From Candidatus Micrarchaeia archaeon (GTDB lineage: Archaea > Micrarchaeota > Micrarchaeia > Anstonellales > Anstonellaceae): a DNA stretch of 64,000 nucleotides. Location of the stretch: positions 30,253-94,252 of the forward strand of contig JBAZYD010000002.1 of NCBI GenBank assembly GCA_041659465.1, read 5' to 3'. The translations under genes were made by a program, and so were the position numbers. This document shows positions 11,812 through 42,561 of the stretch, piece after piece. A model generated the notes under the pieces. That model was not told where the DNA came from. It made no database searches and saw only the letters and a list, made by a program, of their open reading frames with translations. Numbering within the stretch: position 1 is the stretch's first letter; each line of letters opens with the position of its first letter.

Positions 11812-12789
11812 TCACGCCGTCTTTGCTTCAGCTACTTCCTTCACCCTTATGAATATTTCCCCGAACGTCTTTTCCTGGAAGATGGACACGCGCCTGTCCT
11901 GCACGAGGTGCAGCAGGGGGAGAAGGGTGGCAATCATTTCCACCGGCGTCCTCTCGTCAAGGAGCGCGGAGAATGTGGCTAGCCCTTCCGCGTCCTTCTC
12001 GCCCAATATCCTCTTATAGACCGTTTCCATCCTCTCCTCGATGTTGAACTCCGGCATCTGGATGTTTATCACTGTCGGAATCTCAATCCTGTGCGCCTTT
12101 TCCTCGCGCTTCTTCTGGTCGTCAAACACCTTTTCCATGGCGGAAAGCAGCTCGTCCAAAGTCACCATGCGCGTGGGCGGAATCCTTGCCTGAAGCTCAA
12201 GCACAGGTATCACGGATGCTTCCGCATCCTCCTCCACATAGGTCTGCTCCTCCACTACCTGCACTTCCTCCTCGAAGCGAAGCGCCTGGCTCTTGAAGCG
12301 CAAAAGTATGGCTGCCGCGAGTATGAGGTTTGCAGGCACGCGCAGGTCCAGCATCTCCATCTTCTTTATCTTTTCCAGGTAGCCCGTGGCTATCTCCACT
12401 ATGTCAATGTTCCACGGGTCGAGCTTTTTTGTCGCCACCAGGTCAAGCAGCATCTCGCGCCAGGTGGGAAGCGCCACTATCTTCTCAAGCTTCATGTCCT
12501 CTGGAAGCTCCGCAACCGCCGCGCGCCTCTCCTCCGAGTCGTCTATCTCGGCATCCTCGTCGTCGCCCGCGCGCTTGTGCGAGCGCTTGCCCTTCCCGCT
12601 TTCAGGCTGGGGCGTTGGCTTCCTTTTCGCAGATGGCGCCTGCTTTTTTTCCTCTTCTTCAGGATCGTCACCTGACCCTTCAGGTGACGAGTTGCGCCCG
12701 AGCGCATCCTCGCCATTGCCGAATTCTTCCCCTGCCTCAAGCTCGGAATCTTCCTTGGCGTCGCCCATGCGCAAAGTACGGAAGCACAT
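11812..12789 (-). CDS. scpA: segregation and condensation protein A (kleisin) with acidic N-terminal extension
   Basis: WNIDIVEIATGYLEKIKKMEMLDLRVPANLILAAAILLRFKS matches the ScpA N-terminal domain. A C-terminal winged helix is present. Confidence 0.85.
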   Translation of the reverse strand: MCFRTLRMGDAKEDSELEAGEEFGNGEDALGRNSSPEGSGDDPEEEEKKQAPSAKRKPTPQPESGKGKRSHKRAGDDEDAEIDDSEERRAAVAELPEDMKLEKIVALPTWREMLLDLVATKKLDPWNIDIVEIATGYLEKIKKMEMLDLRVPANLILAAAILLRFKSQALRFEEEVQVVEEQTYVEEDAEASVIPVLELQARIPPTRMVTLDELLSAMEKVFDDQKKREEKAHRIEIPTVINIQMPEFNIEERMETVYKRILGEKDAEGLATFSALLDERTPVEMIATLLPLLHLVQDRRVSIFQEKTFGEIFIRVKEVAEAKTA

Positions 12790-12924
12790 CTTTTATTAGT
12801 GTTGCCCAGCGGCAGCCGCCCAACAGCAGGGGATGCAGCAGCGCATTTCCATGCCCGCGCCCGCGCTGAGCGCCAGTAGTGAGGTTAAAAAGCTATTCTC
12901 CTCAATATCGCTTCGGTAATTCAC

Positions 12925-13416
12925 ATGCCAAAGGAAAAGTCAGTGGAAGAAATGACCGACGATGCAGTGCGCGAGGGCGGCTACCTTGCCATGGTGTACT
13001 TCGACCTCCACGGCACCACCGCGGAGGCGGTGAAAAACCTCATGGTGGGGTTCATCGGCAAGCTCACGCGCGAGCCCGGCGTCATATACGCTGTCGGCGA
13101 AATAGACCAGCCCATCGAGAAGGAAGGCATATTCTCTACCTGGGCGGAAGTGAAGTTGCTGGCATCCGATTTCCCCGCGCTTGTGAAAATCGCGGCGCAA
13201 TACTCGCCGATAGGCGTGGAGATACTCCGCCCTGACGAGGTGAAGATGACCTTGGGCGAGGCGCAGGGCTCATTGCTTGACATTTCGCAGACCAGCCAGA
13301 ACTTCACGCGGCTCATAATGGAGAAGATGCTCTCCGCTGACGAAAAAAAGGATTATGCCACCAAGCTGACCCAGCGCATGGAGCTTGGGAAGAAGCTGTT
13401 CGAGAAAAAGAGATAG
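12925..13416 (+). CDS. hypothetical protein
   Basis: 163-aa ORF with coding-like composition, directly upstream of the KaiC-like gene. No motif recognised. Confidence 0.5.
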   Translation: MPKEKSVEEMTDDAVREGGYLAMVYFDLHGTTAEAVKNLMVGFIGKLTREPGVIYAVGEIDQPIEKEGIFSTWAEVKLLASDFPALVKIAAQYSPIGVEILRPDEVKMTLGEAQGSLLDISQTSQNFTRLIMEKMLSADEKKDYATKLTQRMELGKKLFEKKR

Positions 13417-13426
13417 GGGCGGGAAA

Positions 13427-14152
13427 ATGGATGCTCACAAGGCAAAGTCCGGGATTCCAGGGCTTGATGCCATGCTGGGCGGCGGCTTCCTGAGGAACAG
13501 CGTGGTGGCTGTGGCTGGCGGCACAGGAAGCGGCAGGACCATATTCCTCTCGCAGTTCCTTGCGGCAGGCGCGGTTGATTTCGACGAGCCCGGGCTTTAC
13601 CTCTCGCTTGACGCGCAAAAGGAGTCGGTCTATTCAAGCGTAGCCGCCTTCGGCTGGGACATGATGGAGCTTGAGCGCGAGCAGAAGCTCGTCTTCATCG
13701 ACTACCCCCAAAACGAGCTTTCCGCAATCGCTGAGCAGGAAGGCGCGCTTCGCGACCTCATCGGCACGCTTGGCATCAGGCGCGTGGTGATAGATTCCAT
13801 CTCCCCGTACGCGCTCCTCTTTTCCACGCTTGAGGAGCGCAGGATGAACACATTGCGCTTCGTGAACGCGGTGCGCGGCTGGAAAGTGACCGCGCTCATC
13901 TCGGCGGAGACGGTGCCTGCCTCGGAGCAGGAAATCCCCCACACCATCTCCGGTGTGGAATCGTTTGCCGACGGCTTCATCCACCTCTCCTTCCTCAGAC
14001 GGGCGGGCAGGCGCGAGCGCGCGGTGGAAATCGTGAAGATGCGCGGCGCAAGCCACCTGCACGACATCGTCCCCGCGCAGATAACCCCCCACGGGTTCGT
14101 GGTGGGCGCAATCCCGGCGAAGAAGGCGAAAAAGGAGAGCGAGGACGAATAA
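13427..14152 (+). CDS. KaiC/RecA-superfamily ATPase-like protein (Walker A Lys replaced by Arg)
   Basis: GIPGLDAMLGGGF, P-loop AGGTGSGRT, Walker B RRVVIDSIS, and VEIVKMRG near the C-terminus. Confidence 0.75.
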   Translation: MDAHKAKSGIPGLDAMLGGGFLRNSVVAVAGGTGSGRTIFLSQFLAAGAVDFDEPGLYLSLDAQKESVYSSVAAFGWDMMELEREQKLVFIDYPQNELSAIAEQEGALRDLIGTLGIRRVVIDSISPYALLFSTLEERRMNTLRFVNAVRGWKVTALISAETVPASEQEIPHTISGVESFADGFIHLSFLRRAGRRERAVEIVKMRGASHLHDIVPAQITPHGFVVGAIPAKKAKKESEDE

Positions 14153-20912: not shown

Positions 20913-22403
20913 CTAGGAGCCGCGGCCGCCCTTGCCCTCTTCCCACATCTTCCTGATGAGCGAGCGCAGCTCGTCGCGCTTCCTTTCGAACTCGGCCTCA
21001 TCCTTCTGGGACAGCTTCACCCGCTCCACAAGCGCTGGCGCCGCATCCTCCCCGGCTCCAGCAGCGCCCGTGCCGGGCGATGCAATGCCTCTTGGGGCCC
21101 CAGCGCCCGGCTGCGACTCCATCTTGAGGATTTCCGACTCCTTCACAAGCACCTTCACCTTGTCCTCGAGCATTTCCTGCTCGTGCGAAAGCTCGCGGAG
21201 CAGGAAGGAAACCTTCTGTATCTCCTCAGCCGAAAAGCTGCCGCCCGCCTGCGCGGATTTAGCGGCCTCCAGCGCAGAGACCTGCTCGGCTATCTTCCTC
21301 CCGATGTCCTTCTGGCGCGCCGCAAGCTCCTCGTTCGCGCGGCTCATCTCCTCGGATATCTCGACATACTCCTCGACAAGCGACTTCGAGCTTCCGCCCG
21401 CATCGGAATATTTCCTAAGCGTGCCCTCAATCTTCGCAGCCTGCTTTTTTATCAGCGAAACCGAGTCTGACAGGTGGTTCTGCACCGCCTTCTTCTGCTT
21501 CCTCGCCTCCTCGGCCATCTTCCGGATTTCGGAAAGCTTCCTCTTGGCGGCCGGCAGCGAATTCTCCCCCTCGGACAGGTCGGCAAGCTTTCCTTCCATG
21601 CCGGCAATCTTGCCCTCGAGCGACTGCTGCTCCTCCAGCACCGCCTCCACCGCCTCGGCAAGCTCCTTCTTGTGCGCCTTTGCATCCGCGATTTCCACCC
21701 TGAGCTCCTCGACGGCATTGGAGCTCCTGCCCTCCTCTATCTGCTTCTGCAGGTCGTCCACGCGGGTGCCGAACGCCTCGAAGAACATTTCGGTGTCTGA
21801 CTGCTGCGACTTGAGGGTCTCCTCGAATTTTTTCAGGACGCCAAGCTCGTTTTTCAGGTCGTCGGCCGCGGAGCGCTCGGCCTCGGAAGGCCCGCCCTTC
21901 TCCCCTGCCTTCTGCCCGGCCGCAATCGCCTTTTTCCTAAGCGCGTCAAGCTTTGCGGACGTCGCCTTTATCTTGCCTGCATAGGTCTCCTGGAGGCCTG
22001 ACAGCTCGCGCTTGAGCGATTCGGCCTCGGACGCCGACATGGGCCTTGTGGTGAGGTTGGCGATTTCTTCCTGCATGGCGGCGAGGCTGTTCCCCCCCTC
22101 CTCCACGCGCGACAGGAGCTGCTCTATCTCCTCGCGGGTGCCGGTTGCCTTCTCCTCCAGCTTTTCCCGCTTCTGCTCCACCTCCTTCACTTCGGGGGTG
22201 CGCCATACCAGGTAGACCTTGGTGAGCTTGTATTCGACCGTGATTATGCCCTCCTCCTCAAGGACATGCGCCCAGTCCTCCGTTGTCCTTGCGGGGAGCC
22301 TGAGCTCCTTTGCGGCTGCGCCTATCTCCACCCTGCCCCGTTCCTTGACAAGGCGTATCAGGTTGTCTACGCCTGTTGATATGAGCAAGTCGTCCAGCGC
22401 CAT
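20913..22403 (-). CDS. winged-helix + long coiled-coil protein
   Basis: N-terminal ~70-aa wHTH-like domain (IGAAAKELRLPARTTEDWAHVLEEEGIITVEY), then ~400 aa of E/K/A/L-rich heptad-like sequence. The ATG lies 25-31 nt from the TATA at 22428-22434. Confidence 0.6.
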   Translation of the reverse strand: MALDDLLISTGVDNLIRLVKERGRVEIGAAAKELRLPARTTEDWAHVLEEEGIITVEYKLTKVYLVWRTPEVKEVEQKREKLEEKATGTREEIEQLLSRVEEGGNSLAAMQEEIANLTTRPMSASEAESLKRELSGLQETYAGKIKATSAKLDALRKKAIAAGQKAGEKGGPSEAERSAADDLKNELGVLKKFEETLKSQQSDTEMFFEAFGTRVDDLQKQIEEGRSSNAVEELRVEIADAKAHKKELAEAVEAVLEEQQSLEGKIAGMEGKLADLSEGENSLPAAKRKLSEIRKMAEEARKQKKAVQNHLSDSVSLIKKQAAKIEGTLRKYSDAGGSSKSLVEEYVEISEEMSRANEELAARQKDIGRKIAEQVSALEAAKSAQAGGSFSAEEIQKVSFLLRELSHEQEMLEDKVKVLVKESEILKMESQPGAGAPRGIASPGTGAAGAGEDAAPALVERVKLSQKDEAEFERKRDELRSLIRKMWEEGKGGRGS

Positions 22404-22427
22404 GGCTGTTCCCTGCAAATCCAATCC

Positions 22428-22434: not shown

Positions 22435-22498
22435 GATTTGTGCTGAAGGCTATCGTCAGTTGAACGCTTCGCGCGCGTATCGGTTAGTGGGGATATTG

Positions 22499-23872
22499 AT
22501 GGCAGACATGGATTTTGACATGCGGCTGAAGAAGGAGGCAAAGTCCTCGCTCCAGTCATTCCGCGACCAGTCGCTGCTGCGCCGCAAGTTCGGCGACGAG
22601 GCGGTCAAGCTTTACAACCTCATAGACAGCGGAAAGACCGCATCCGGGCTGATGTCCTCCCTTGGCATGAAGGAGGAAACCTTCGTGGAAATCCTGGAAT
22701 TCATGAACAACAATGCCATGGTGAGCATCGTCCCGTCCGAGCCTGCCCCTGTGCAGGATTGGCGCGATGCAGCAGGCGGCGAGCGCGCCACTGAGGGCGC
22801 CGAAGGCGGCGCTGCCGGTGAAGAAGGCGGGCCAGAAGAAAGCGAGCCGGGCGCCCCTGGCGAAAAGCCCCCCATATCCGCCATGCCATCCCCCTCGCCA
22901 TCCGCCCCTGCAGGGAAGGAAATCGACGAGGACTCGCTTTCCCCGCTTGAAAAGGTGCTTTACAGGAAGCACGGCTCCATAGGCGTCAGGATATACAACC
23001 TGATTGACGGGGAAAAGACCGCCGAGGAGATATTGCGCGAGACCGGCGTGTCCGAGGCAAAGCTGGTCGAGATACTGGAGTTCATGGACGAGCAGGGCAT
23101 CATCAAGCTTGAGAAGCCCGAGGAAAAGCAGCCTGCCGAAAGCGGCGATGGCAAGGATGAAGGGAAAGGCGAAAACTTCTCCGAAGGCGGCGAGGGCGGG
23201 GGCAAAGGCGGCGACGACTCCGGCGAAGACAAGGACGGCCTTGACGGGGAAGGCGAGGACAAGCCTGCGCGCGAGCCGCGCTTCAAGCCCATAGTGGAGG
23301 ACGTGCCGGAAGGCAAGCCTTTCCAGGCGCCCGAGGCCCCGAAGAAGGAGGACAGGCAGGCGAAAAAGGAGGAGGTGGACGAGCCGGGCGAGGACATCGT
23401 GATGGTGGACGTGCCTGTGGTTGCGAAGCTTTCCATGCTGCAGCGCGCAATGATGTTCACCGAGCTTTCCACCAAGTTCCCCCCTGCCGCGCGGTCGCTT
23501 TTCGACATGGCCGACGGCAAGCGCGACTTCGTGGGGCTTTCGCTCGCAACGGGCATGCCGCTTTTCGACATAGACTCAGCAATGGCGTACTTCGGCAAGA
23601 AGGGCTTCATCACATTCCGCCAGCTCGACCGGAACGAGATACGCGACAGGTACGGGGAGGACGGATTTGCCATCTACAAGCGCTTCGGCAGGGAAGGGCT
23701 CCTGATATACGAAATGATAGGCAAGGAGGCGTCATTGCGCGACATCATACTCAAGAGCAAGGTGGACCCCGAGCGCGCGATAGAGATATTCTCCTTCATC
23801 CATAAAGTGCTCGGGCTTGACATACCGCTTGACCGCGACCTCATCTATCGGCAGATAGGCTTGAAAAAATAG
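22499..23872 (+). CDS. protein with four winged-helix-like repeats separated by acidic/Gly-rich linkers
   Basis: Repeats of the type KLYNLIDSGKTASGLMSSLGMKEETFVEILEFMNNNAMVSI and RIYNLIDGEKTAEEILRETGVSEAKLVEILEFMDEQGIIKL, plus two more C-terminal copies. GGGGAT SD before the ATG at 22499; a TTG at 22460 is possible. Confidence 0.55.
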   Translation: MADMDFDMRLKKEAKSSLQSFRDQSLLRRKFGDEAVKLYNLIDSGKTASGLMSSLGMKEETFVEILEFMNNNAMVSIVPSEPAPVQDWRDAAGGERATEGAEGGAAGEEGGPEESEPGAPGEKPPISAMPSPSPSAPAGKEIDEDSLSPLEKVLYRKHGSIGVRIYNLIDGEKTAEEILRETGVSEAKLVEILEFMDEQGIIKLEKPEEKQPAESGDGKDEGKGENFSEGGEGGGKGGDDSGEDKDGLDGEGEDKPAREPRFKPIVEDVPEGKPFQAPEAPKKEDRQAKKEEVDEPGEDIVMVDVPVVAKLSMLQRAMMFTELSTKFPPAARSLFDMADGKRDFVGLSLATGMPLFDIDSAMAYFGKKGFITFRQLDRNEIRDRYGEDGFAIYKRFGREGLLIYEMIGKEASLRDIILKSKVDPERAIEIFSFIHKVLGLDIPLDRDLIYRQIGLKK

Positions 23873-32288: not shown

Positions 32289-32374
32289 GCCCCTATTGCT
32301 TCGCCAACCCTTTTAAATAATCTCGTCGAATACCGCTTGGTCTTAGCGGCGCGCACGGGCGCGGGGTGTTTCTC

Positions 32375-33889
32375 ATGGCTGATTTGAAAAAGCGTGTGCC
32401 TGAAAAGGAAGGCGTGCTCGACTCCTATGTATATGACAACGAGGGCATCCAGGTGCTCGCAAAGATATTCACCAAAAGCGGGGAATACGTGCCGCAGTAC
32501 GAGGTGAACGTGCGCGAGCTTTCCGAGGGCACGCGCCTTGTCCTCAACACCCTCAAGGGCGAGCTCATCACCACGGTGAAGCTTGACATCACCGACATCA
32601 TAGACCCGAAAAAGCGCGACGAGGTGAGGACCAAGTTCGAATCGCGCGCAAATTTCCTGCTTTCCAAGCACTTCCCCACTCTTTCCGAGGCCGACAAGAA
32701 GGTGCTCACCGCCTATCTTCTCCAGAACAGCCTGGGATTGGGCGACCTGGAGCCGCTCATGCACGACAATGCGCTTGAGGAGGTTGCAATAAACTCCTCC
32801 GCTGAGCCCGTGTGGGTCTACCACAAGAAATACGGCTGGTGCAAGACTAACGTGCACCTCAAGAACGAGGAGTCCATCTACGACATCTCGGCAATGATAG
32901 GGAGAAGGATAGGCAAGCAGATAAACACGCTCAACCCCGTGATGGACGCGCACCTGTCCTCCGGCGACCGTGTGAATGCCACCATGTTCCCCGTATCCAG
33001 TTTCGGCAACACCATCACCATCAGGAAATTCTCCAGGAACCCCTGGACGATACCGTACCTGATAGAGCTCAACTGCATCTCGCCGCAGGTGGCAGGGCTC
33101 ATCTGGCTCTGCATGCAAAACGAGCTGTCCCTTCTCGTCGCAGGAGGCACGGGCTCTGGAAAGACATCCTTCCTCAATGCCATCTCCTGCCTCATACCTG
33201 CAAACCAGCGCATCATTTCCATTGAGGACACGCGCGAACTGACGCTTCCCACCTTCCTGCAATGGGTGCCCATGGTGACGCGCGAGCCCAACGCCGAGGG
33301 CAAGGGCGAAATAACGATGCTCAATCTCCTGGTGAACTCGCTGCGCCAGAGGCCTGACAGGATAATCGTCGGGGAGGTCAGGAAGCAGCGCGAGGCCGAG
33401 ATACTTTTCGAGGCAATGCACACAGGCCACTCGGTCTACGCAACCCTGCACGCGGACAACGCAGCTGAGGCGGTGACACGGCTTACCACCCCTCCCATCT
33501 CAATGCCGCGCGAGTCGCTCTCCGCGCTTGCAGGCGTGGTGGTGCAGTTCCGCCACAGGCGCCTCAACATCCGCCGCACGCTCGAGTTCGCTGAGGTGCA
33601 GAAAGGCGGGGACATAAACTCGCTTTACCGCTGGGACGTAAAGACCGACAAGATTGCCGAAGTGGGCAAGATGGTCTCCCTCTCGGCCACGCTTTCCCTC
33701 TATGCAGGGCTCACCCAGCGCGAGATAGACTCGGACGTATCCGACAAGGCGAAGATTTTCTCCTGGATGGTGAAGAAGGGCTACAAGAGCGTGAACACCG
33801 TGGGGGCGCTGGTGTCGCAGTACTACATGAACCCCGACGCCGTGGTCTCGCTTGCAGCAAAGAACGCCGACTGGAGCGGGCCCGAGTAG
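32375..33889 (+). CDS. type IV pilus/archaellum-family secretion ATPase (PilB/FlaI/GspE-like)
   Basis: Walker A GGTGSGKTS, IEDTRE, Walker B RIIVGEVR, His box ATLHA. Confidence 0.85.
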   Translation: MADLKKRVPEKEGVLDSYVYDNEGIQVLAKIFTKSGEYVPQYEVNVRELSEGTRLVLNTLKGELITTVKLDITDIIDPKKRDEVRTKFESRANFLLSKHFPTLSEADKKVLTAYLLQNSLGLGDLEPLMHDNALEEVAINSSAEPVWVYHKKYGWCKTNVHLKNEESIYDISAMIGRRIGKQINTLNPVMDAHLSSGDRVNATMFPVSSFGNTITIRKFSRNPWTIPYLIELNCISPQVAGLIWLCMQNELSLLVAGGTGSGKTSFLNAISCLIPANQRIISIEDTRELTLPTFLQWVPMVTREPNAEGKGEITMLNLLVNSLRQRPDRIIVGEVRKQREAEILFEAMHTGHSVYATLHADNAAEAVTRLTTPPISMPRESLSALAGVVVQFRHRRLNIRRTLEFAEVQKGGDINSLYRWDVKTDKIAEVGKMVSLSATLSLYAGLTQREIDSDVSDKAKIFSWMVKKGYKSVNTVGALVSQYYMNPDAVVSLAAKNADWSGPE

Positions 33890-33991: not shown

Positions 33992-36900
33992 ATGGGCGCA
34001 AAAACCGACATATTCCCCACATTCTCCGAGCTTTGCGCAGTCGCCCGCGAGGTGGAAAAAAAGCCGCTTTCCATCCCCCCGCGCCCAATCGACGGCAAGC
34101 TCGTGCTTGACGAGAACTTTGGCATCTTCCCGCGCGAGTTCGACGAATACACCTACAACTTCCTGCTTTTCGAGGCGCAAAAAATTGAGCGCTGGCTCAG
34201 CGCGGACGCGGTTTCAAAGTCAGTCGAGGGGCAAAACGCAGCGCCTGCGCATTACACGCCCGAGGAGCAGATGGAAAGCGACCTCCGCAAGTTCGTCTCG
34301 GCGCAGGAGCAATCCTCTGCCGAAGCCGGGGCGCGCCTTCCGCAGCCGCTTAGGGCAAAAAGCGCGCAAGCGCCGCCTGTGCCCGACGAAGTCACAGATT
34401 ACGAAAAGGAAAATCAAAAATCACGCGAGGCTGCCGGCGAAGACGCCTCTTCATTGCCTGAAAAAGCAACGCCAGCCCCCCCTCTTGCCAGGAAGGCGGA
34501 AATCCCCTCCCTCCCGCAGGCAAGGCCTCGCGTGCTGCCCCCAAAAGCGCCCCTGGGCACCGAGCAAAAAAAACCGCAATTGCCAATCGCGCCCCAGATT
34601 CCGCCTGCAAGGCCTTCAGGGCAGCCCATGCAGCAAGCGCCGGATGCATTGCCATCCAGGCAGGCCCCTGCACAGCCAGGGCAGAAAGCAGCGCCCGCGA
34701 TTCCGGCCGCACCCAAGGTACCGGCTCCAAAGCCATCCGAACAGGATGCTTTTGAACCCATCACGCCGCAGCCATCATCGTCGGAAGCGCCGGAGCCATC
34801 TTCGGGCCCGTCAACAGAAGCTGAAAAAAAGCCGCCGGCAGGCATAACATCCTATTCCAAGCTCTCCCCGCGCCTGCAGGCGATAATAGAGCAGAAGCTC
34901 CGCCGCGAGGAGGAAAAGGCGAAAAAAGCCCGCGAAGATTCTGACATCTTCAAATCTCCCCCGCCCCCTCCTTCCGAGGATGAATCCGGGAAAGGTGCGA
35001 CTGGGCAGGAATTGGAGGATGTGGATGCGCCCAATGCATGGAACCTGCACGATGATGAGGCTGAAGGCAGGGAAGCTGCCAAGCAAAGCCCGCGCAAGGC
35101 GCCGCTTGGCAAAACGGAAGAGGAAGAAGCCCCGGTCCCTGAAGGGGAGGAAAAGCCTTTGCCGCAGGAAGATGCAGGCATTCAGGCTCCAAAAAAGCCC
35201 GCCCCCATATTGCCTATGCGCGAGGAGGGAAGCGAGGGGGAAATCCCTTTGCCTGGCGAAGAGGGGCAGCCTTTGCCCGACGATTCCGCCGGGGCGCCGA
35301 TTCCGCGCAAGGAAAAAGCCAGGATTGCGCCAAGCGAAGCGCCTGAGGGGGCGCCCCCTGAAGAAGAGGAAAAGCAAGAAGAGGAGGAAAAGCAGGCCCA
35401 GCCCGCCGATGCCCCTGCGGAGATGGAAGAGCGCGCTTTGCGCGCGCGAAGCCCTGCCAGGGCCGGGCCAGTCACGATAAAGCCGCTGTTCCCGGATGCC
35501 GACGCTTCCGCGCCTTCGCAGGAAAAGCAGGAGATTTCCCAGGCTGAAGACTCCGACCGCATGCGCCGCATCCAAAGGATAATCGAGGATTTGTCACCGG
35601 ACAGGGTGCGCGCGCAGCCAGGGCAGGAGAGTGTTCCATCAGGGAGCAGGCCCTCTTCCAGGAAATCCGGGCAGCAAGCCGGCGCTGGCGACGGGGAGGA
35701 AAAGGAGCCGGAAGAGGCTGAACCTGTGCAGCCTGCCTCGGCGCCGAAAAAAGCCGGCGCTGGCAAAAAGCAAAAGGCGCTTGCCGCGCCCGTGAAAAAG
35801 GCCGCTGGCGCGCGGGCAAGCAAAGCGGCTGCGGCTGCAGAGGAAAAGGAAGCGCCAAAATTAAAGCAAAAGGCAGCGCCACAAAAAAAGCTGCAAAGCA
35901 TCATGCCTGTGGAGCAAGCCCCTGCTGTGAAAAAGCCAACCCAAGCGCCTGCCCCTGCTGCGGGCGAAGAAGTTCAGTCATCACGATTAAAGCCGCGCCT
36001 GCCAATGCGCGAAGAGGAGCAAGCGCCTGCAGGGTTTGCGCCAAGGAAGATCGCCCCCCGCCTGCCAGTGCGCGAAGAGGAAAGCGAGAATGCTGGCGAG
36101 GAAACAGCGCCTTCGCCGCCTGCATCTGCAGGAGGCGAGCAGTGGCGCAAGAGCGCCACTCAAGCGCCGAGAAAGCTTGCCCCCAGGTTTGCCCCGCGCG
36201 CCGAAGAAAGCGAGAATGCTGGCGAGGAAGCGCCTGCTGCGCCTGAAAGATTCGTGCCAAGGAAGCTTGCCCCCAGGTTCGCTGCGCGCGAGGAAGAGGG
36301 CGAGGCGCCTGCTGCGCCCGCAAGATTAAAGCCGCGCCTGCCAATGCGCGAAGAGGAAAGCGAAGGGCCTGGCGAAGAAGCGCCTGCTGCTCCTGAGCCT
36401 GCCCAAGTCCCATTCCTGAAGCGACGGATTTTGCCTGGCATGGTGCGCACTGCGCCTTTTGCCCCGCAGACATACGTGCCTCCTGCCAGGGAGAAAAAGC
36501 CAATTGCGCAGCCCCAAGGCGAGCCTGAAGCCAATGAAGCGCCTGCGGAGGAAGCCGCGCAGGAGCCTCAGGCGGAAGGGGCACAGGAGCCAACTGAGGA
36601 GCAAGCAAGGGAAATTTCCCCCAATCTCGCGCCCCTGCGGCCAAGGAAGCTTGCCTCGGATGAGGCGCCGCTGGCTTCTGAAAAAACCCCGGAGCAGCTC
36701 CTGCAGGACCAAAAGATGGCGAAAATGGCAGAGCAGCTTGCAAGGCTTGAGGCCGGCAAGGAGAAGGAAGTGGCTGGCACCGCGGCAATGCCCTCGGAGG
36801 AGGACGTTCCGCTCCCCGAGGAGGAAGAGACTGCGCCCAAACCGGGCGAATACGAGCAGGCAAAGGACAACCTTAGGAAGTCGCTTGAGCACGAGGAGAC

Positions 36901-37150
36901 GGCGCGCAAGGTGAAGCAGGAGGACGAGGCAATAGTCGAGCAGTATGCAAAGGACCACCTGGTATGGCTTTACGAGATATACAAGATGGGCGGGATGGGC
37001 AGGGAGGATTTCCTGCAGAAGGCTTCCGAGAAATATTCCGAGGCCGAGCGCAGCAGCCAGCCTGCCGCTGCAGGGGATGGCAAGGATGCGCCCCCGAACC
37101 CGGCGCTTGCCGCGCTTTCAAAGGAGATTGAAAAGAAGGACAGGAAATAG
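33992..37150 (+). CDS. 1052-aa P/E/A/K-rich low-complexity protein with short ordered termini
   Basis: Longest frame in the region. Non-repetitive N-terminus (~70 aa) and C-terminus (IVEQYAKDHLVWLYEIYKMGG). Sits between the ATPase and platform genes on the same strand. Confidence 0.55.
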   Translation: MGAKTDIFPTFSELCAVAREVEKKPLSIPPRPIDGKLVLDENFGIFPREFDEYTYNFLLFEAQKIERWLSADAVSKSVEGQNAAPAHYTPEEQMESDLRKFVSAQEQSSAEAGARLPQPLRAKSAQAPPVPDEVTDYEKENQKSREAAGEDASSLPEKATPAPPLARKAEIPSLPQARPRVLPPKAPLGTEQKKPQLPIAPQIPPARPSGQPMQQAPDALPSRQAPAQPGQKAAPAIPAAPKVPAPKPSEQDAFEPITPQPSSSEAPEPSSGPSTEAEKKPPAGITSYSKLSPRLQAIIEQKLRREEEKAKKAREDSDIFKSPPPPPSEDESGKGATGQELEDVDAPNAWNLHDDEAEGREAAKQSPRKAPLGKTEEEEAPVPEGEEKPLPQEDAGIQAPKKPAPILPMREEGSEGEIPLPGEEGQPLPDDSAGAPIPRKEKARIAPSEAPEGAPPEEEEKQEEEEKQAQPADAPAEMEERALRARSPARAGPVTIKPLFPDADASAPSQEKQEISQAEDSDRMRRIQRIIEDLSPDRVRAQPGQESVPSGSRPSSRKSGQQAGAGDGEEKEPEEAEPVQPASAPKKAGAGKKQKALAAPVKKAAGARASKAAAAAEEKEAPKLKQKAAPQKKLQSIMPVEQAPAVKKPTQAPAPAAGEEVQSSRLKPRLPMREEEQAPAGFAPRKIAPRLPVREEESENAGEETAPSPPASAGGEQWRKSATQAPRKLAPRFAPRAEESENAGEEAPAAPERFVPRKLAPRFAAREEEGEAPAAPARLKPRLPMREEESEGPGEEAPAAPEPAQVPFLKRRILPGMVRTAPFAPQTYVPPAREKKPIAQPQGEPEANEAPAEEAAQEPQAEGAQEPTEEQAREISPNLAPLRPRKLASDEAPLASEKTPEQLLQDQKMAKMAEQLARLEAGKEKEVAGTAAMPSEEDVPLPEEEETAPKPGEYEQAKDNLRKSLEHEETARKVKQEDEAIVEQYAKDHLVWLYEIYKMGGMGREDFLQKASEKYSEAERSSQPAAAGDGKDAPPNPALAALSKEIEKKDRK
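35985..36357 (+). repeat. degenerate tandem coding repeats (R[KL][LIK][AK]PR[LF].[PMVA]REEE.E units)
   Basis: GATTAAAGCCGCGCCTGCCAATGCGCGAAGAGGA occurs at 35985 and 36324. GAAAGCGAGAATGCTGGCGAGGAA and AAGCTTGCCCCCAGGTT each occur twice. Confidence 0.7.
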
Positions 37151-37213
37151 GCATGCGCCAATACGTGCATTTTAATAAATTGCATTGGAATTAAGCCTAA
37201 GCGAGGGAAATGG

Positions 37214-38140
37214 ATGGATCAAAACGACAGGAACGCAGCGCAGGCGCCAAGGTCCCATCACCCGTTCGTGGCGCAGCCCCTGCGCGAAGCCGAGGGCGCG
37301 CAGGACCCCCGCCAGTTCCGCCCGTTTTTCAAGTCAGTCTCGCTCCGATTCCCCCTCCTCAAACGCCAGCTCGTGCAGGCCCAGATGAACTACACTCCCG
37401 CAGGCTTTGTCCGCTACGCCATGTCCGGGGCGGTCTACATCACGGCGGTCCTGCTCCTGGTGGCGTGGCTGTTGCTCCGCTCCACCGAGCTCTCCATGCT
37501 GCTTCTCCTCGCGCTTGCGCCAGTGCTGTATGTGCTCATGTTCCTCTACCTTATGCAGTTCCCGCTCGTGAAGGCAAGGCAGCGCGCAAAGAAAATAGAG
37601 CAGGAGCTTGTGTTCGCAGGCAGGCACATGCTCATCGAGCTCCAGTCCGGCGTGCCGCTCTTCGACGCAATGCTTGGGATAAGCCGCGACTACGGGCCGG
37701 TGTCGGAGGAGTTCAACAAGATAGTGGAGAAAGTCACGCTTGGCGTGCCGCTCGGGGCGGCATTCCACGAGGTCGCGGAGAACAACCCCTCGCCGTACTT
37801 CAACCGCCTCGTGCTCCAGCTTGCAAACTCCCTCTCGTCGGGCGCGGACGTCGCCCTCACGCTCGAGTCGTCGCTTGACCAGATTTCCAAGGAGCAGGTG
37901 CTCGAGCTCAAGGCATACGGGCAGAAGCTCAACCCCCTGGTGATGTTCTTCATGATTTTCGGCATAATCATGCCGTCGCTGGGCGTCGCGTTCATGATAA
38001 TGCTGGTGTCCTTCCTGGGCGGCTCGGGCATATCGTTCGGGCCTTCCGCGCTTTTCGGGATTCTTGCCTGCATAGGCATAATCCAGTTCATCTTCCTCTC
38101 GGTCGTGGAGTCGTCGCGGCCGAAGTTCGACATAGTCTGA
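37214..38140 (+). CDS. T2SSF-domain platform protein (FlaJ/TadB/PilC half-size), 1 of 2
   Basis: Cytoplasmic helical T2SSF-like domain (GRHMLIELQSGVPLFDAMLGI...) flanked by TMs. Confidence 0.75.
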   Translation: MDQNDRNAAQAPRSHHPFVAQPLREAEGAQDPRQFRPFFKSVSLRFPLLKRQLVQAQMNYTPAGFVRYAMSGAVYITAVLLLVAWLLLRSTELSMLLLLALAPVLYVLMFLYLMQFPLVKARQRAKKIEQELVFAGRHMLIELQSGVPLFDAMLGISRDYGPVSEEFNKIVEKVTLGVPLGAAFHEVAENNPSPYFNRLVLQLANSLSSGADVALTLESSLDQISKEQVLELKAYGQKLNPLVMFFMIFGIIMPSLGVAFMIMLVSFLGGSGISFGPSALFGILACIGIIQFIFLSVVESSRPKFDIV

Positions 38141-38150
38141 CGGTGCGCTT

Positions 38151-39218
38151 ATGGCAATAAGGATATACGAAATGGTGGGGCGGATTTTCAGCCGCGACCA
38201 GACGCGGAGGCTAGGGCACCTGCTCGAGTCCGCGGGCATGGACTTTGTCCCCGAGGCATTCGCGGGCTTCATAGTGGTGCTCTGCATGCTCGCCTCGGTG
38301 CTCACCTACCTCCTCTTTATCGGGGCATCGCCATTGCGCAGCGTGCTTTTCAAGCTCGCGCTCATGATATCCCCGAGCCTCACCGCCTCCTCGCCGGCCC
38401 TCCTGTCCGCGTTCACCGCGCTCTTTTCCGTTGCGCTTGCGACAGGCATCATCTGCCTTGCCGCATACGTCTCGCTCCTGCTCATGGCCGACGAGCGCAG
38501 GCGCAGGGTGGAGGACGTGCTCCCGGAATTCCTGTCGCTTTCCGCGGCAAACGTGCGCGCGGGCATGACCATCGACCAGGCCATGTGGTATGCCGCAAAG
38601 CCCGAATTCGGGATATTGTCCGACGAGGTGGCAACTGTCGCGAAAAAGGCGTTCGGCGGCGTGCCCTTCAACACCGCAATCGACCATCTCACCGAGCGCT
38701 TCAGCTCCAAGGCGGTGAGAAGGACGGTCGCGCTCATAAAGCAGGGCATCGCATCGGGCGGCAAGCTGGCTGACATACTGGAGCGGACTGCGGAGGACAC
38801 GCGCCAGATGTCGTCGCTGCGGAAGGAAATCGCGACCTCCCTCATAATGTACGTGATATTCATAGTGTTCGCAGGCGCAATAGGCACGCCTTTCCTGTTC
38901 GCAATCTCCGGCAAGCTCGTGGCCATCATCGAGTCCGTCTTTTCCGCGCACCAGTTCTCGGACATCTCCACCGCCGGCTATTCAGGCTCGTTCATCATGC
39001 CGCAAAAGCCGCTCATCACGTCCTCCGAGTTCTTCATCTTCACCGTGCTCTGCTGCATCATGACCGCAATCTTCTCCTCTCTCATAATAGGCGTGATTTC
39101 CAAGGGGAGCAAGAAGGACGGGATGGTGTACCTCCCTGTGCTGCTGATAGGCTCGCTCCTGATATTCTTCCTGATGGGCTTCCTGCTCGACACCGTACTG
39201 GCAAATATATATATTTAA
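38151..39218 (+). CDS. T2SSF-domain platform protein, 2 of 2
   Basis: Second T2SSF-like domain (LSAANVRAGMTIDQAMWYA...LIKQGIASGGKLADIL) with N- and C-terminal TM clusters. Confidence 0.7.
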   Translation: MAIRIYEMVGRIFSRDQTRRLGHLLESAGMDFVPEAFAGFIVVLCMLASVLTYLLFIGASPLRSVLFKLALMISPSLTASSPALLSAFTALFSVALATGIICLAAYVSLLLMADERRRRVEDVLPEFLSLSAANVRAGMTIDQAMWYAAKPEFGILSDEVATVAKKAFGGVPFNTAIDHLTERFSSKAVRRTVALIKQGIASGGKLADILERTAEDTRQMSSLRKEIATSLIMYVIFIVFAGAIGTPFLFAISGKLVAIIESVFSAHQFSDISTAGYSGSFIMPQKPLITSSEFFIFTVLCCIMTAIFSSLIIGVISKGSKKDGMVYLPVLLIGSLLIFFLMGFLLDTVLANIYI

Positions 39219-39245
39219 CGTGAAAATAGGCAATAAGGTGGTTTG

Positions 39246-39734
39246 ATGATTGGTAAACTCGGCTCAAAAGGCCAAGCTGCTATGGAATACCTGATGACAT
39301 ACGGATGGGCCCTGCTTGTCATCGTCATCGTGATCGCGATACTGCTCATCATGAACCCGTTCTCCGCGCCCCAGAGCTGCAAGTTCGACCAGATCGGCTT
39401 TGCGTGCGACAACCCAGTGGTTCGGGCTGACGGCCTGCTCCTCATGGGAGTCACCAACGGCAACAACAACGCCATCAATGTGACCGGCGTGGTGTGCACA
39501 TCCGCCAAGTCCACCACTCCGCCATCGCCCCAGGCCCCGGCCACCAACATCGTAGTGGCCCGCCAGGGGACGCTTACCATCGGCGTTACGTCCAACGTGG
39601 TGTGCGCAGGCGCGCCGACAACCGCAGGCGGGGACTTCTCCGGCAAAATCTGGATATTCTACAGGAACAGCGAGGACGGCGTCGGCTACCCGGTAAGGAC
39701 TGCAAGCGCAAACCTCGTGACAAAAGTAGCCTGA
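39246..39734 (+). CDS. archaeal type IV pilin (class III signal peptide)
   Basis: MIGKLGSKG/QAAMEYLMTYGWALLVIVIVIAILLI. AAGGTGG SD upstream. Pyrimidine-rich terminator tract at 39735-39780. Confidence 0.8.
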   Translation: MIGKLGSKGQAAMEYLMTYGWALLVIVIVIAILLIMNPFSAPQSCKFDQIGFACDNPVVRADGLLLMGVTNGNNNAINVTGVVCTSAKSTTPPSPQAPATNIVVARQGTLTIGVTSNVVCAGAPTTAGGDFSGKIWIFYRNSEDGVGYPVRTASANLVTKVA

Positions 39735-39867
39735 GTTTTTTCCCCTTTTCTCCTTTCTTTTTCTTTTCCCCCTTTAGCGCAAGCCTGCCGCGCGCCCATC
39801 CACCGCAAACCTTTATAAACCACACTTGGCATATATACAGCCGTACAAACAGGCAAAAGGAGAGAAC

Positions 39868-40917
39868 ATGCAGCACAAGCAATTCCACGGCAGGCGCTTT
39901 TTTGCGAAAGCGGCAATCGCCACAACTGCGGCACTCGTTGGGTGCTGGTTTGCCATCCAGCCGCTCGTTTCCCTTGCGCAGGAAAAGCCGCAGCAGAAAT
40001 CCGCAAGCGCGCCCGCGCCTGCCTCTGCAGATGGGAGCAAGGAAAAGACAGTCTCATTCTCCGATGCGCAGGGGGCGCAGCAAAGTCGCGACACTGCGAA
40101 AGCCGGCGGCAAGCAGCTGCCATCGCAGCCAAGGTACGACAGCACGCATCCGTATGCAGGCGTGAGGCGCATACTTGTCGAGCTTGCAGGCCAGCCCGAT
40201 TCCGCGCAGTTCTATGCGCACAAGTACGTCCTGCTCGTGGACGAAATTGCCGCCGCGCTTCAGGACAGCCTGGGCGCTTCCGGCGTTGTGGAAAACCGCC
40301 AGCTTCTCTCCATGCTTTGGAAAATAATGCAGTCGCGCTTTTACTTTGCAGACGACACGAAGTTCATTTCCAATTCGCTCCTGGCCAATCTTTGGGACTG
40401 CGACAATTCAGCCGCAGTCGCCTATGACGTCCTGAGGAAGTTCGGCTTCTCGCCCGAGACAATATCGCTTGCCGGGCACCTTCTCCTGAAGAACGGGCCG
40501 CTGGACTTCGAGACCAAGACTGGCACTATCTATTCGCACGACAGCATCGGCTTTTACTACCCGCCGCCAGTGTCCGCCTCAGGCGCAGATGCATTCATCG
40601 CGCTTGCACACTTCGAGCTTGGGAACATCGACTTGGACTCGTCCAGGTTCGAAAGCGCCATAAGGAATTACAAGAAGGCAATCTCCATCAACTCCCGCGA
40701 TCCGGATTCCCACAACAACCTCGGATGGGCATACGAGTCCATGGGGAAGTATGAAAATGCCCTTGCCGAGTATTCCATTGCAATAGGCCTATCCCCCAAG
40801 CGCGGCATCGCGCGCCTGAACCGCGCCAACCTATATGAAAAGCTCGGGCGCGAGAACGAAGCCCAGGCCGACCGCGACGAATATTACGGAGTAAAGGGCG
40901 TGAAAGTCATCAAATGA
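39868..40917 (+). CDS. Tat-signal lipoprotein with transglutaminase-like core (SirB1-type) + TPR repeats
   Basis: GRRFFAKAAIATTAALVGC (twin-Arg plus lipobox). WDCDNSAAVAYDVLRKFGF...AGHLLL resembles Transglut_core2. C-terminal TPRs (NNLGWAYESMGKYENALAEY). Confidence 0.65.
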   Translation: MQHKQFHGRRFFAKAAIATTAALVGCWFAIQPLVSLAQEKPQQKSASAPAPASADGSKEKTVSFSDAQGAQQSRDTAKAGGKQLPSQPRYDSTHPYAGVRRILVELAGQPDSAQFYAHKYVLLVDEIAAALQDSLGASGVVENRQLLSMLWKIMQSRFYFADDTKFISNSLLANLWDCDNSAAVAYDVLRKFGFSPETISLAGHLLLKNGPLDFETKTGTIYSHDSIGFYYPPPVSASGADAFIALAHFELGNIDLDSSRFESAIRNYKKAISINSRDPDSHNNLGWAYESMGKYENALAEYSIAIGLSPKRGIARLNRANLYEKLGRENEAQADRDEYYGVKGVKVIK

Positions 40918-40962: not shown

Positions 40963-42561
40963 TTGGTCTTTATCTTTCAGGTAACCGCAACAGCAGGCAG
41001 CCCTGCGACCGCCACGCAGCAGAATCAGCCAAGCACTGTGCAAAACCAGCAGGCCACGCGCGTGGAAATGCAGAAATGGGTGGCGCAGAACTATTCAGTT
41101 ATAGGGAACGTGTACACGAACAACTGCAAAGGCCTCAAGCCCAACAGTTACGAAATAATGTTTCCAAAGGATGCGACATCCAATGATGCCTTTAGGCTGG
41201 ACTTCTACCGCAAAGACGAGCTTGTAAGCTCGTTCAAAGTGTCCCCGGCAGAAGGAGGCTACAAGGTGATTACACAGGACATTTACGACCAAAAGCTCCA
41301 GCAGGAGAAAGGAAACTATGTTTCCCTATCCGGTCCGCTCAAAAACGTTTCCCTATCCAGTCCGCTCACCAACGACATGCTGGTAGTCATCCCGTTCAAT
41401 TCAACATACACCATAAAAAACGCGGAATTCAACCCAAAAGCCGTTGTTTCCGACCCTAAAGAGGCGGACAGCCGGACCCACTATTACGGAAACACCAAGC
41501 AAAGCGCCGAACTCTACACATACCATTCATTTACCGAAAGCAACCTTTACAAAGGGGGGTTCGACGAGGCATCAAAGACGCTCGGCGACCTCTACAACCA
41601 ACCCCCGGGCAAGCAGACTAATTATTTTGCCGATGATGATGTCGGCTTCAGGCAGAATCAGTATGTCTCCCTGCTGCTTTCCATATCCAGGCAGGCGCCC
41701 AACTCGAACGGGATAATCCTGATGCCATCCAATGTCAACTATGCCTCGCTCATACCCGGGCGCAACCACGAGGGGGTCCAGGAAAACAGGACAAAATACT
41801 ACCTTGTCCCGGCATCCGCCTCAATATCGGACATCTACAAGCTTCCGAGCAGCAATGTGCCTGTAGATGTCAAGATCAGCCCAGATGGGAATACCGTAAA
41901 TTTCACCTATAATGGCAAGACACTCGCTTCGCAGGGTGCAGACGTGGCAGGTGTCCCTGGCGGTGTGATAAACCAGACCATCAAGGCAAAGGACGGAGTT
42001 TCCAATGACGAGTGGAAGCTCGTTTCCGTTATGAACGTCAAGGAATACCAAAACGAAGAAGGGACCTATCTCACCAGGAACATCCGCGAATTTGACGGAA
42101 CCGCCCAGGTCTCGCTTGCGGACGGCACCAAGATGACCCCTAAAAAGGGCGCCCATTGGGTTTATACTGCCTCGGTCACGACTGATGAAGGCGAATCCAA
42201 AACACAAGTCTTCGCCTGCCACCCGCTAAATACCACGCCGCCCAAGGGCATAACCTCGCAATTGACGCCTGTCACGATGGAAGCAATCCAAAACGTGATG
42301 TCCGAGAAGAACATAACTCCTGTACTAATCAATGTGCCCTCCACAAACAAAGTAACTGCAGCAGCGGAGAACGTTGCTCCTTTGCAGGCTTACGTCAAGC
42401 AGGAATTCAACGGGATTACAGCCACCATATCGCCCAACTCAGACAATTTCACTTTTGACAAGCAGAACAACCTGGCTTCCATCAAGCCCGAGGTCCTCTC
42501 GCCCCTTCTGAAGGACATTTCCAACAGGACGGCGTTTTCCCTCTCGATGAAGCAGGAGTAG
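40963..42561 (+). CDS. hypothetical 532-aa protein
   Basis: TTG start 5 nt after GGTGAT. T/N/S/Q-rich and beta-like. Internal duplicate VSLSGPLKNVSLSSPLTN. No motif recognised. Confidence 0.45.
   Translation: MVFIFQVTATAGSPATATQQNQPSTVQNQQATRVEMQKWVAQNYSVIGNVYTNNCKGLKPNSYEIMFPKDATSNDAFRLDFYRKDELVSSFKVSPAEGGYKVITQDIYDQKLQQEKGNYVSLSGPLKNVSLSSPLTNDMLVVIPFNSTYTIKNAEFNPKAVVSDPKEADSRTHYYGNTKQSAELYTYHSFTESNLYKGGFDEASKTLGDLYNQPPGKQTNYFADDDVGFRQNQYVSLLLSISRQAPNSNGIILMPSNVNYASLIPGRNHEGVQENRTKYYLVPASASISDIYKLPSSNVPVDVKISPDGNTVNFTYNGKTLASQGADVAGVPGGVINQTIKAKDGVSNDEWKLVSVMNVKEYQNEEGTYLTRNIREFDGTAQVSLADGTKMTPKKGAHWVYTASVTTDEGESKTQVFACHPLNTTPPKGITSQLTPVTMEAIQNVMSEKNITPVLINVPSTNKVTAAAENVAPLQAYVKQEFNGITATISPNSDNFTFDKQNNLASIKPEVLSPLLKDISNRTAFSLSMKQE

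Follow-up and report, generated by a model that had tools for sequence, protein, structure and literature searches.

The DNA stretch analysed here, referred to as the window, comprises 64,000 nucleotides of a Candidatus Micrarchaeia archaeon (assembly GCA_041659465.1, contig JBAZYD010000002.1, positions 30,253 to 94,252), and the subject of this report is an open reading frame (ORF) in its type IV pilus operon that encodes a mostly disordered protein of 1052 residues. Coordinates are those of the window, and all features lie on the plus strand unless a minus sign is given. The ORF occupies positions 33992–37150 including the stop codon, begins with ATG and is the sole stop-free frame of the region; orthologs are found at the same position. 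Its upstream neighbour in the operon encodes a secretion ATPase of the FlaI/PilB/TadA type (32366–33889; Pfam T2SSE, E 6.7e-39), which also matches the FlaI-like archaellum ATPase of NCBIfam with an E value of 2.2e-79, under the equivalog cut-off. Downstream follow the two halves of the platform, the first being T2SSF/TadB-like (37214–38140; Pfam T2SSF, E 1.6e-17), which matches the N-terminal half of ArlJ, and the second T2SSF/TadC-like (38151–39218; Pfam T2SSF, E 3e-16), which matches the C-terminal half. A preliminary description of this DNA had placed the 1052-residue ORF between the pilus ATPase and the platform genes; this placement holds, and it is fixed in the orthologous loci.

The ORF 33992–37150 is a real, conserved gene. 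The low T content of the region (12.9%) and its strong A>T skew give rise to long spurious ORFs in all frames, and this, together with the lack of any database family, could suggest that the ORF simply reflects a T-poor composition in non-coding or decayed DNA. However, the coding frame has no internal stops where about 30 are expected from composition, whereas the other five frames carry 9–27 stops each, with longest open stretches of 174–323 codons; the earlier statement that all the other frames are open as well was wrong. Two further tests were made against a single ortholog, L029, from a Lac Pavin Micrarchaeota metagenome-assembled genome (MAG). Of the 25 indels that separate the two genes, 23 are multiples of three, and the differences per codon position are 0.227, 0.275 and 0.417 in the disordered ORF versus 0.03, 0.014 and 0.243 in the adjoining ATPase. 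From these results it follows that the frame is maintained, yet the rate of protein evolution is far higher than in the neighbouring genes. At both ends of the gene, the codon bias matches that of the genes alongside (GAG 82%, AAG 75%), and it is relaxed in the middle (GAA 52%, AAA 42%). A search with the protein as query matched 22 of 23 genomes of the same genus, with stop-free open frames of up to 1154 residues and with matches concentrated at residues 1–130 and approximately 870–1052. Each same-genus genome with an unbroken locus has an open frame of 640–1154 residues at the same place, and in the lone genome without a match the ATPase lies at a contig end. Hence the long disordered ORF with conserved termini that was sought in orthologous loci is indeed kept there. 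The single open frame, the in-frame indels with third positions changing most, the conservation of the protein ends across the whole class and the confidently modelled helical domains described below refute a non-coding origin.

The composition of the protein is strongly biased (A 16, E 14, P 14, K 8 and S 6%), and among the 680 ORFs of at least 300 residues in its own 1.36-Mb genome it has the lowest hydrophobic fraction (0.16). An AlphaFold2 (AF2) model built with 38 orthologs gave a mean predicted local distance difference test score (pLDDT) of 44, with 773 of the 1052 residues below 50; helices with pLDDT of about 80–91 were obtained at residues 11–23, 48–81, 293–319, 512–541, 900–926 and 951–1022. 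The alignment of the 38 orthologs (A1) and the AF2 model concur on the layout of order and disorder. Invariant or nearly invariant columns of A1 fall in an N-terminal module, in four internal islands, in motifs that precede the C-terminal domain (residues 929–942), in this domain and in the tail that follows it. With its low hydrophobicity, low complexity, mostly absent confident structure and drifting composition around conserved short motifs, the protein belongs operationally to the intrinsically disordered class, and it is predicted to be approximately 75% disordered. The ordered ends and long disordered middle of the preliminary description are thus recovered, given that both termini are helical and confident in the model.

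The N-terminal module (residues 1–81; 33992–34234) contains the helices 11–23 and 48–81, modelled with pLDDT up to about 80, and is conserved in alignments A3 and A5; its characteristic motifs are FPTFxEL...ARxVEK and IFPxEFxxYTYxxLLxEAQKIER. It is followed by a helix at residues 90–111 (34259–34324; AF2 block pLDDT 79/67), in which PExQMExxLxKFVSAQE is conserved in close orthologs. At the other end, a C-terminal helical domain (residues 951–1022; 36842–37057; AF2 pLDDT 82–91) has the core YAKxxLVWLYEIYKMGGMxREDFLQK, with invariant residues Y954, A957, K958, E983, A986, K987, W992, L993, Y994, E995, Y997, G1000, G1001 and F1007. The protein ends in a basic amphipathic tail, PPNPALAALSKEIEKKDRK (residues 1034–1052; 37091–37147), modelled as a helix at 1037–1051 and with N1036 and A1038 invariant. 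This tail is kept across genera as NPA[LF]ANLxKEIxK[KR]xKK, with a hydrophobic moment of 0.39–0.63, a net charge of +2 to +4 and a low mean hydrophobicity.

Between these modules, several discrete elements stand out from the disordered background. The first is the helical island SSYSKLSPRLQAIIEQKLRREEEKAK (residues 286–312; 34847–34927), which overlaps the AF2 helix 293–319 (SSYSKLSPRLQAIIEQKLRREEE; pLDDT 72–81) and in which S289, K290, S292, P293, R294, L295, K302 and L303 are nearly invariant across the 38 orthologs. The second (35477–35614) consists of the island IKPLFPD (residues 496–502) and the helix DSDRMRRIQRIIEDLSPDRVRAQ (residues 512–541; AF2 pLDDT about 79), the helix after IKPLFPD being DSDRMRRIQRIIEDLSPD; I496, R523, I527, I530 and L534 are invariant in the orthologs, and an IKP-type island is present in other genera too. 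The islands at 34847–34927 and 35525–35614 have in common the pattern R[LI]Q.IIE[QED] (SPRLQAIIEQKL and RMRRIQRIIEDL), which suggests an internal duplication or one docking helix present in two copies. Further on lies the linear motif KRRILPGMVRTAPFAPQTYVPPAR (residues 810–833; 36419–36490), in which R812, P815, G816, T827, Y828, P831 and R833 are invariant in all 38 orthologs; this motif, R812.LPG816...T827Y..P831.R833, has no structure in the AF2 model. Finally, residues 880–942 (36629–36817) comprise the motif APLRPRKLASDE, the helix 900–926 (AF2 pLDDT about 80) and the motif EVAGTAAMP...DVPLP; the consensus forms in A1 and A2 are APLRPRKLxSDE and EVAGTAxLP...DVPLP, and P934, P940 and P942 are invariant.

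The order ATPase, disordered ORF and first T2SSF gene was found in every same-genus genome in which the locus lies on a single contig, and the same order occurs in other genera of the family. Among same-genus genomes the flanking ATPase orthologs are 83–97% identical and the first platform gene 61–89%. Paralogous ATPase/T2SSF loci in the same genomes (45–48% identity) have no intervening gene. The full ortholog sequences examined are 640–1133 residues long, and within the family the length goes from 477 to 1334: five of the six genera (g1, g2, g3, g17 and g18) have at least 623 residues, and g16 has 477–595. Composition is wholly different in other genera of the family, where a protein of approximately 1100 residues is rich in S/P/A (G023) and others are rich in S/Q/K (G024) or K/E/N (metagenomes); despite this drift, the C-terminal domain and the tail are retained. 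With a profile of the C-terminal domain (A2), no more than 78 clusters were recovered from 1.84 billion representative proteins, and in every case the match lies at the C-terminal end. Across the genomes of the class it matched 25 of 301, all of them in this family (six genera) with the exception of three in two further families, where the matches are fainter (E 1e-7 to 5e-4). The gene is interrupted by an assembly break in at least six related MAGs (G007, G010, G013, G024, G194 and G039), the N-terminal and C-terminal parts being on different contigs, which fits repeat content or strain-level length variation; because assemblies break inside it, the gene will probably often be truncated or missed in MAG annotation.

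A survey of the gap that separates the ATPase gene from the first platform gene extended the comparison beyond the window's family, in which this gap measures 1.7–4.1 kb. In family f7 a gap of 2.4 kb encodes a 732-residue protein with a long coiled-coil middle, and in f3, f8 and f9 gaps of 1.4–1.8 kb encode proteins of approximately 430–660 residues, with an N-module, a linker rich in Pro, Glu and Lys, a helical domain and a C-domain. In f2, f4, f5, f6, f10 and f11 the gap is reduced to 0.6–0.9 kb and encodes proteins of 210–245 residues. In f12 it is about 0.1 kb and holds no gene: in G035 (C9, 12513–14894) the ATPase gene directly adjoins that of the first platform protein. A profile search found no homolog of the N-module anywhere in two f12 genomes, and this family represents a natural loss of the accessory protein. 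With hhalign, the N-terminal ends of the short forms matched the window's N-module at 93% (E 2.6e-7) and their C-terminal ends matched its C-domain at 79% (E 1.6e-5). The forms of about 500 residues matched the N-module at 88%, and a whole-length comparison with A1 returned the N-module only; by eye, the impression is that the island DSDRMRRIQRII may correspond to the KKRMxELTKELF helix of these forms. A combined N-module profile (A5), to which the window protein matches with an E value of 2.3e-31, has matches in 112 of the 351 genomes examined in the phylum, other orders included, and each of the 112 holds exactly one copy.

The window protein carries the N-module pattern of the family, F..[EL]...A..[VI]E[KR] ... 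[YF]..[LM]...[AV]QKIE[RK], and at its end the C-domain pattern [YL]A[KR]....[LW][LY]..[YF]..GG/G.[IM]..[ED][ED]F, and it is encoded as a single copy between the orthologous FlaI-type ATPase gene and the first T2SSF gene on the same strand. Given the homology with the short forms, the gap survey and the spread of the N-module, the 1052-residue protein is an extreme, linker-expanded member of a class-wide, single-copy family of the pilus operon. It is the enlarged version of a compact two-module protein of approximately 210 residues, whose range covers the order and extends outside it.

A conspicuous feature of the linker is a short repeated motif rich in proline, arginine and acidic residues. 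Six copies of the pattern [RK]xxP[RKI][LIFM][PAS]x[RQ][EDAG] were counted in the window protein, and a looser pattern, +xxPxxP, occurs 10 times versus 2.8 expected from shuffled sequences. One isolated copy, KKPAPILPMREEGSEGE (residues 401–417; 35192–35242), belongs to the DNA repeat family D1, and a cluster of five PR[LF][PA]xR[EA]EE copies lies at residues 665–796 (35984–36379), within the DNA repeat families D1–D4. The DNA repeats include a pair of 37 nucleotides with 97% identity (35982–36018 and 36321–36357) and longer families of 66–80 nucleotides with three or four copies each. The six copies, some of them backed by DNA repeats, that had been noticed beforehand were therefore confirmed. 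When the orthologs were examined, however, the copy number of PRLPxREEE varied from 0 to 6, and the motif was restricted to the clade nearest to the window, that is, to orthologs at least about 44% identical to it; none was found in more distant orthologs of the same genus. The earlier expectation that [RK]xxPR[LF]PxREEE would be kept across orthologs was thus not borne out, and the motif appears to be a recent lineage-specific amplification and not a feature of the family. Since it is not retained, multivalent binding through PRLPxREEE, as formerly suggested, cannot be the core function of the family. A 571-residue ortholog from family f8 (L079 177–1892, minus strand; genome G372) has its own short repeats in the linker (EKELPEELPRVPEEKELPREKIPQVRELPEEKELPKE), and so Pro/Glu-rich linker repeats of the 'LPxxxEE' type seem to arise repeatedly and independently.

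These observations raise the question of whether the long middle does anything by itself. It is conceivable that only the end modules matter, and that approximately 900 residues between them are a non-adaptive product of slippage and duplication, kept in frame solely because the C-domain must be translated. Several of the results above agree with such a neutral expansion: orthologs in other families function with a middle of about 60–150 residues, the length within the family varies from 477 to 1334 residues, the composition drifts completely between lineages (A/E/P/K, S/P/A, S/Q/K, K/E/N), codon bias in the middle is relaxed, DNA duplications are recent, and the PRLPxREEE copies come and go. 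Nevertheless, the genomes are streamlined (0.8–1.7 Mb), and yet at least 623 residues are maintained in five of six genera; the middle also contains invariant islands and confidently predicted helices. In addition, the corresponding space is occupied by a coiled coil or a helical domain in other families, and this points to some importance of length or reach. For these reasons a purely neutral linker seems unlikely.

Regarding the cellular location, no Sec, Tat or class III signal, transmembrane (TM) segment or other hydrophobic segment was detected in any of the 38 orthologs, where the most hydrophobic stretch has 13 hydrophobic residues in 19, counting Ala. The N-terminus of the window protein, MGAKTDIFPTFSELCAVAREVEKK, is hydrophilic and helical, and the most hydrophobic stretch of 19 residues has 12, again counting Ala; the short basic N-terminus followed by a hydrophobic helix of about 20 residues that characterises type IV pilins and class III substrates is absent from it. 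In view of this lack of hydrophobic segments and signal-like N-termini among the orthologs, the protein is probably cytoplasmic, and the spacer spanning the envelope that had been envisaged is unlikely. No type IV pilus machine is known to thread cytoplasmic proteins, and this too speaks against an exported or surface-exposed protein acting as an envelope spacer, as a pilus-associated matrix or adhesin, or as a substrate destined for a host. The appeal of that idea lies in the very fast evolution and variable repeat number of the middle, which could reflect pressure from hosts or viruses, in the MAG assemblies that often break inside the gene, as they do in strain-variable surface genes, and in the proposal that Micrarchaeota pili mediate host contact (PMC5498576). 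Against it, the N-terminus is a conserved soluble helical module and the short orthologs are small helical proteins of cytoplasmic type; taken together, export is very improbable.

No known fold or domain was recognised in the conserved modules. The whole protein has no match in Pfam (at E<=0.01) or NCBIfam, and a Pfam scan of 13 C-domains at E<=1 returned scattered noise only. When the PDB was searched with profiles of the C-domain, of the N-domain and of the short forms, no match had an E value under 0.028 and none was meaningful. A Foldseek search that started from the model of the C-domain revealed no helix-turn-helix (HTH) or other fold, the best E value being 3.3. The C-domain core LYEIYKMGGMxREDFLQK does have the pattern L..L...G.[IM]..E[ED]F...K of SHOCT (PF09851) and the SHOCT-like DUF1707, and orthologs from two other families gave sub-threshold Pfam matches to SHOCT (E 0.023), DUF1707 (E 0.043) and VbhA (E 6.7e-5). 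Membership in SHOCT was rejected: with the Pfam gathering threshold at 27 bits, only the G033 ortholog was matched, at 16.7 bits, and a genome-wide search with the hidden Markov model (HMM) left the window protein, G000 and the orthologs of its own family unmatched. These faint likenesses are part of the case for a regulator in which the end modules form a small HTH-like or SHOCT-like oligomerising switch for ATPase activity or for transcription of the operon. The other part is that the short orthologs terminate in a segment of the type G[IL]SxExIxxYF, which, read by eye, resembles an HTH recognition helix. However, this segment is replaced by a disordered stretch in the window's family, all the SHOCT-type matches are under curated cut-offs, with none in the window protein and none by HMM in its family, and the structural search was negative for HTH; a regulatory switch of this kind is therefore improbable.

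The 31 homologs found in databases are all labelled hypothetical or unnamed. One further candidate from the search of representative proteins, P0088, was discarded as a chance match, being an unrelated repeat protein rich in Cys in which the motif THEDFLNKLKEKFGE recurs. Likewise, the protein is not described in the literature on archaeal type IV pili that was consulted (PMC4858521, PMC13705601 and PMC5498576). In archaeal type IV pilus loci, lineage-specific cytoplasmic proteins of helical or coiled-coil type have been recognised that are uncharacterised (Makarova, Koonin & Albers 2016, PMC4858521), for example arCOG07564 of the haloarchaeal subclade 4F and arCOG05610/07479 of subclade 4G. 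Like them, the Micrarchaeia protein is probably cytoplasmic and α-helical, is encoded inside a type IV pilus operon in one lineage and is presumed to be regulatory or scaffolding, and the f7 ortholog has a long coiled coil as well. In contrast, no sequence relationship with the proteins of that study was detected, none of those described is a disordered protein of about 1000 residues, and the Micrarchaeia family has its own N- and C-modules and lies strictly between the ATPase and platform genes. A 2026 census of archaeal type 4 filaments gives DPANN only a brief treatment (PMC13705601). The pilus loci MIA14_0170-0177 listed for 'Ca. Mancarchaeum acidiphilum' Mia14 (Golyshina et al. 2017, PMC5498576) belong to the same phylum and to a pilus operon of the same, Methanococci-type (Epd-like) kind. 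The initial impression that no pilus or archaellum component of this kind had been described agrees with these searches, in which no database family or paper describes the protein. It represents a new, undescribed accessory family of the Micrarchaeia type IV pilus operon.

Two known systems offer partial parallels. ArlX (FlaX) is a non-core scaffold of the crenarchaeal archaellum that forms rings; it has an N-terminal TM anchor, a long helical middle and a conserved C-terminal part that contacts the ATPase. The window protein is similar in being a non-core candidate scaffold of an archaeal type IV filament machine, but it lacks a TM segment and any Pfam or NCBIfam match, its middle is disordered instead of coiled coil, and it belongs to a pilus and not to an archaellum: arlF, arlG and arlH are absent from the locus, and the ATPase is under the ArlI equivalog cut-off. 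The second parallel is with FimV/HubP, the polar hub proteins of bacteria that have links to type IV pili, and with PopZ, all of them large, acidic, low-complexity or repeat-rich hubs with small folded end modules that recruit or organise machine components. The layout of PopZ, with an N-terminal helix, a Pro/Glu-rich linker and a C-terminal helical oligomerisation domain, is the same as that of the window protein. The resemblance is limited to how such proteins work: there is no homology, and the organisms belong to different domains of life. The LysM domain, TM segment and FimV C-terminal motif (TIGR03504/03505) that identify FimV/HubP were not found, the protein having no Pfam or NCBIfam match and no hydrophobic segment, and the PopZ domain (Pfam DUF2497/PopZ) is absent at E<=0.01 in the whole protein and at E<=1 in the C-domain.

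The remaining genes of the locus provide the context of this protein. Downstream of the platform genes, a probable pilin, KGQAAMEYLMTYGWALLVIVIVIAILLI (39243–39734), has a short basic N-terminus followed by a hydrophobic helix; Pfam and NCBIfam scans gave no match for it, and its probable class III signal peptide was read by eye. On the same strand follow a tetratricopeptide repeat (TPR) protein that begins with a hydrophobic anchor or signal (39826–40917) and a 532-residue protein without any family match (40963–42561), both of which may be pilus-associated, as adhesin or assembly factor. A TATA-like sequence, TTTTAATAAA, is located at 37169–37178, within the 63-nucleotide spacer 3' of the disordered ORF and about 36 nucleotides 5' of the start codon of the first T2SSF gene; the platform and pilin genes may accordingly have their own promoter. 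Upstream of the operon, a divergent gene pair encodes a winged-helix and coiled-coil protein of 503 residues (20913–22424, minus strand) and a multi-winged-helix protein of 470 residues with acidic Gly/Pro linkers (22460–23872, plus strand). These are orthologs (44% and 39% identity) of the divergent pair L044 10674–11852 (minus) and 11887–13431 (plus), which immediately precedes the pilus ATPase gene in a different family of the order. In the window the pair is 8.5 kb away from the ATPase gene, and thus the pilus module seems to be split.

From all of the above, it is proposed that the gene is translated and that its product would be a cytoplasmic accessory subunit, specific to the lineage, of the main Tad/Epd-like type IV pilus machine. 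Its working parts would be the two-helix N-module of approximately 80 residues and the helical C-domain of approximately 70 residues with its basic amphipathic tail; these end modules, probably the tail too, may dock on the ATPase hexamer, on those faces of the two platform proteins that are exposed to the cytoplasm, or on both. In the window's family, in-frame duplication and slippage would have expanded a middle of about 60–150 residues into 500–1200 residues of polyampholyte disorder, which may have gained docking elements, namely the three helical islands, the R.LPG...TY..P.R motif and, in the nearest clade only, the PRLPxREEE repeats. In this way the protein could work at the base of the pilus motor, on its cytoplasmic side, as a flexible tether or hub with two ends. 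As to partners, location and function, which are deduced, we lean towards this cytoplasmic two-ended adaptor with an expanded flexible linker, and the flexible tether or scaffold of the preliminary description remains the most plausible reading. Four points weigh against it. The f12 family has no detectable homolog, and hence the protein is dispensable for at least some related machines; the TATA-like box separates the disordered ORF from the platform genes, which may be transcribed separately; the short orthologs work with their much shorter middle, and the extended disordered stretch may not itself have a role; and membrane binding by the C-terminal tail is not supported, its mean hydrophobicity being low.

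A bolder version, which we regard as doubtful, is that, among type IV filament machines, the protein could be the first subunit to act as a disordered hub: a length-tunable polyampholyte tether, held at the motor and the platform by its end modules, whose helical islands and linear motifs gather further factors into a brush or condensate beneath the base of the pilus. The candidates to be gathered would include the winged-helix/coiled-coil and multi-winged-helix proteins, whose genes flank that of the ATPase in relatives. If this were true, it would be an archaeal, independently evolved counterpart of FimV/HubP and PopZ in cells only a few hundred nanometres wide.

The pilus machines of DPANN archaea have been assumed to be minimal, and here a conserved, unnamed extra subunit is found in the principal pilus operon of the Micrarchaeia, a DPANN lineage of tiny symbionts. 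In DPANN archaea, type IV pili are regarded as the chief organelle for contact with the host (PMC5498576). The present case also serves as a warning, given that genes of this type break metagenome assemblies and stay annotated as 'hypothetical'. For studies of binding, the modules at hand are the N-module, the C-domain with its tail, the three helical islands and the R.LPG...TY..P.R motif. It is, moreover, a rare instance of a very large intrinsically disordered protein that is kept in genomes of about 1 Mb. The length of the spacer between the end modules differs more than 10-fold between families, which have a middle of about 60–150 residues, a helical domain, a coiled coil or more than 1000 residues of disorder; this family is therefore a natural experiment on the length and type of a linker in a nanomachine.

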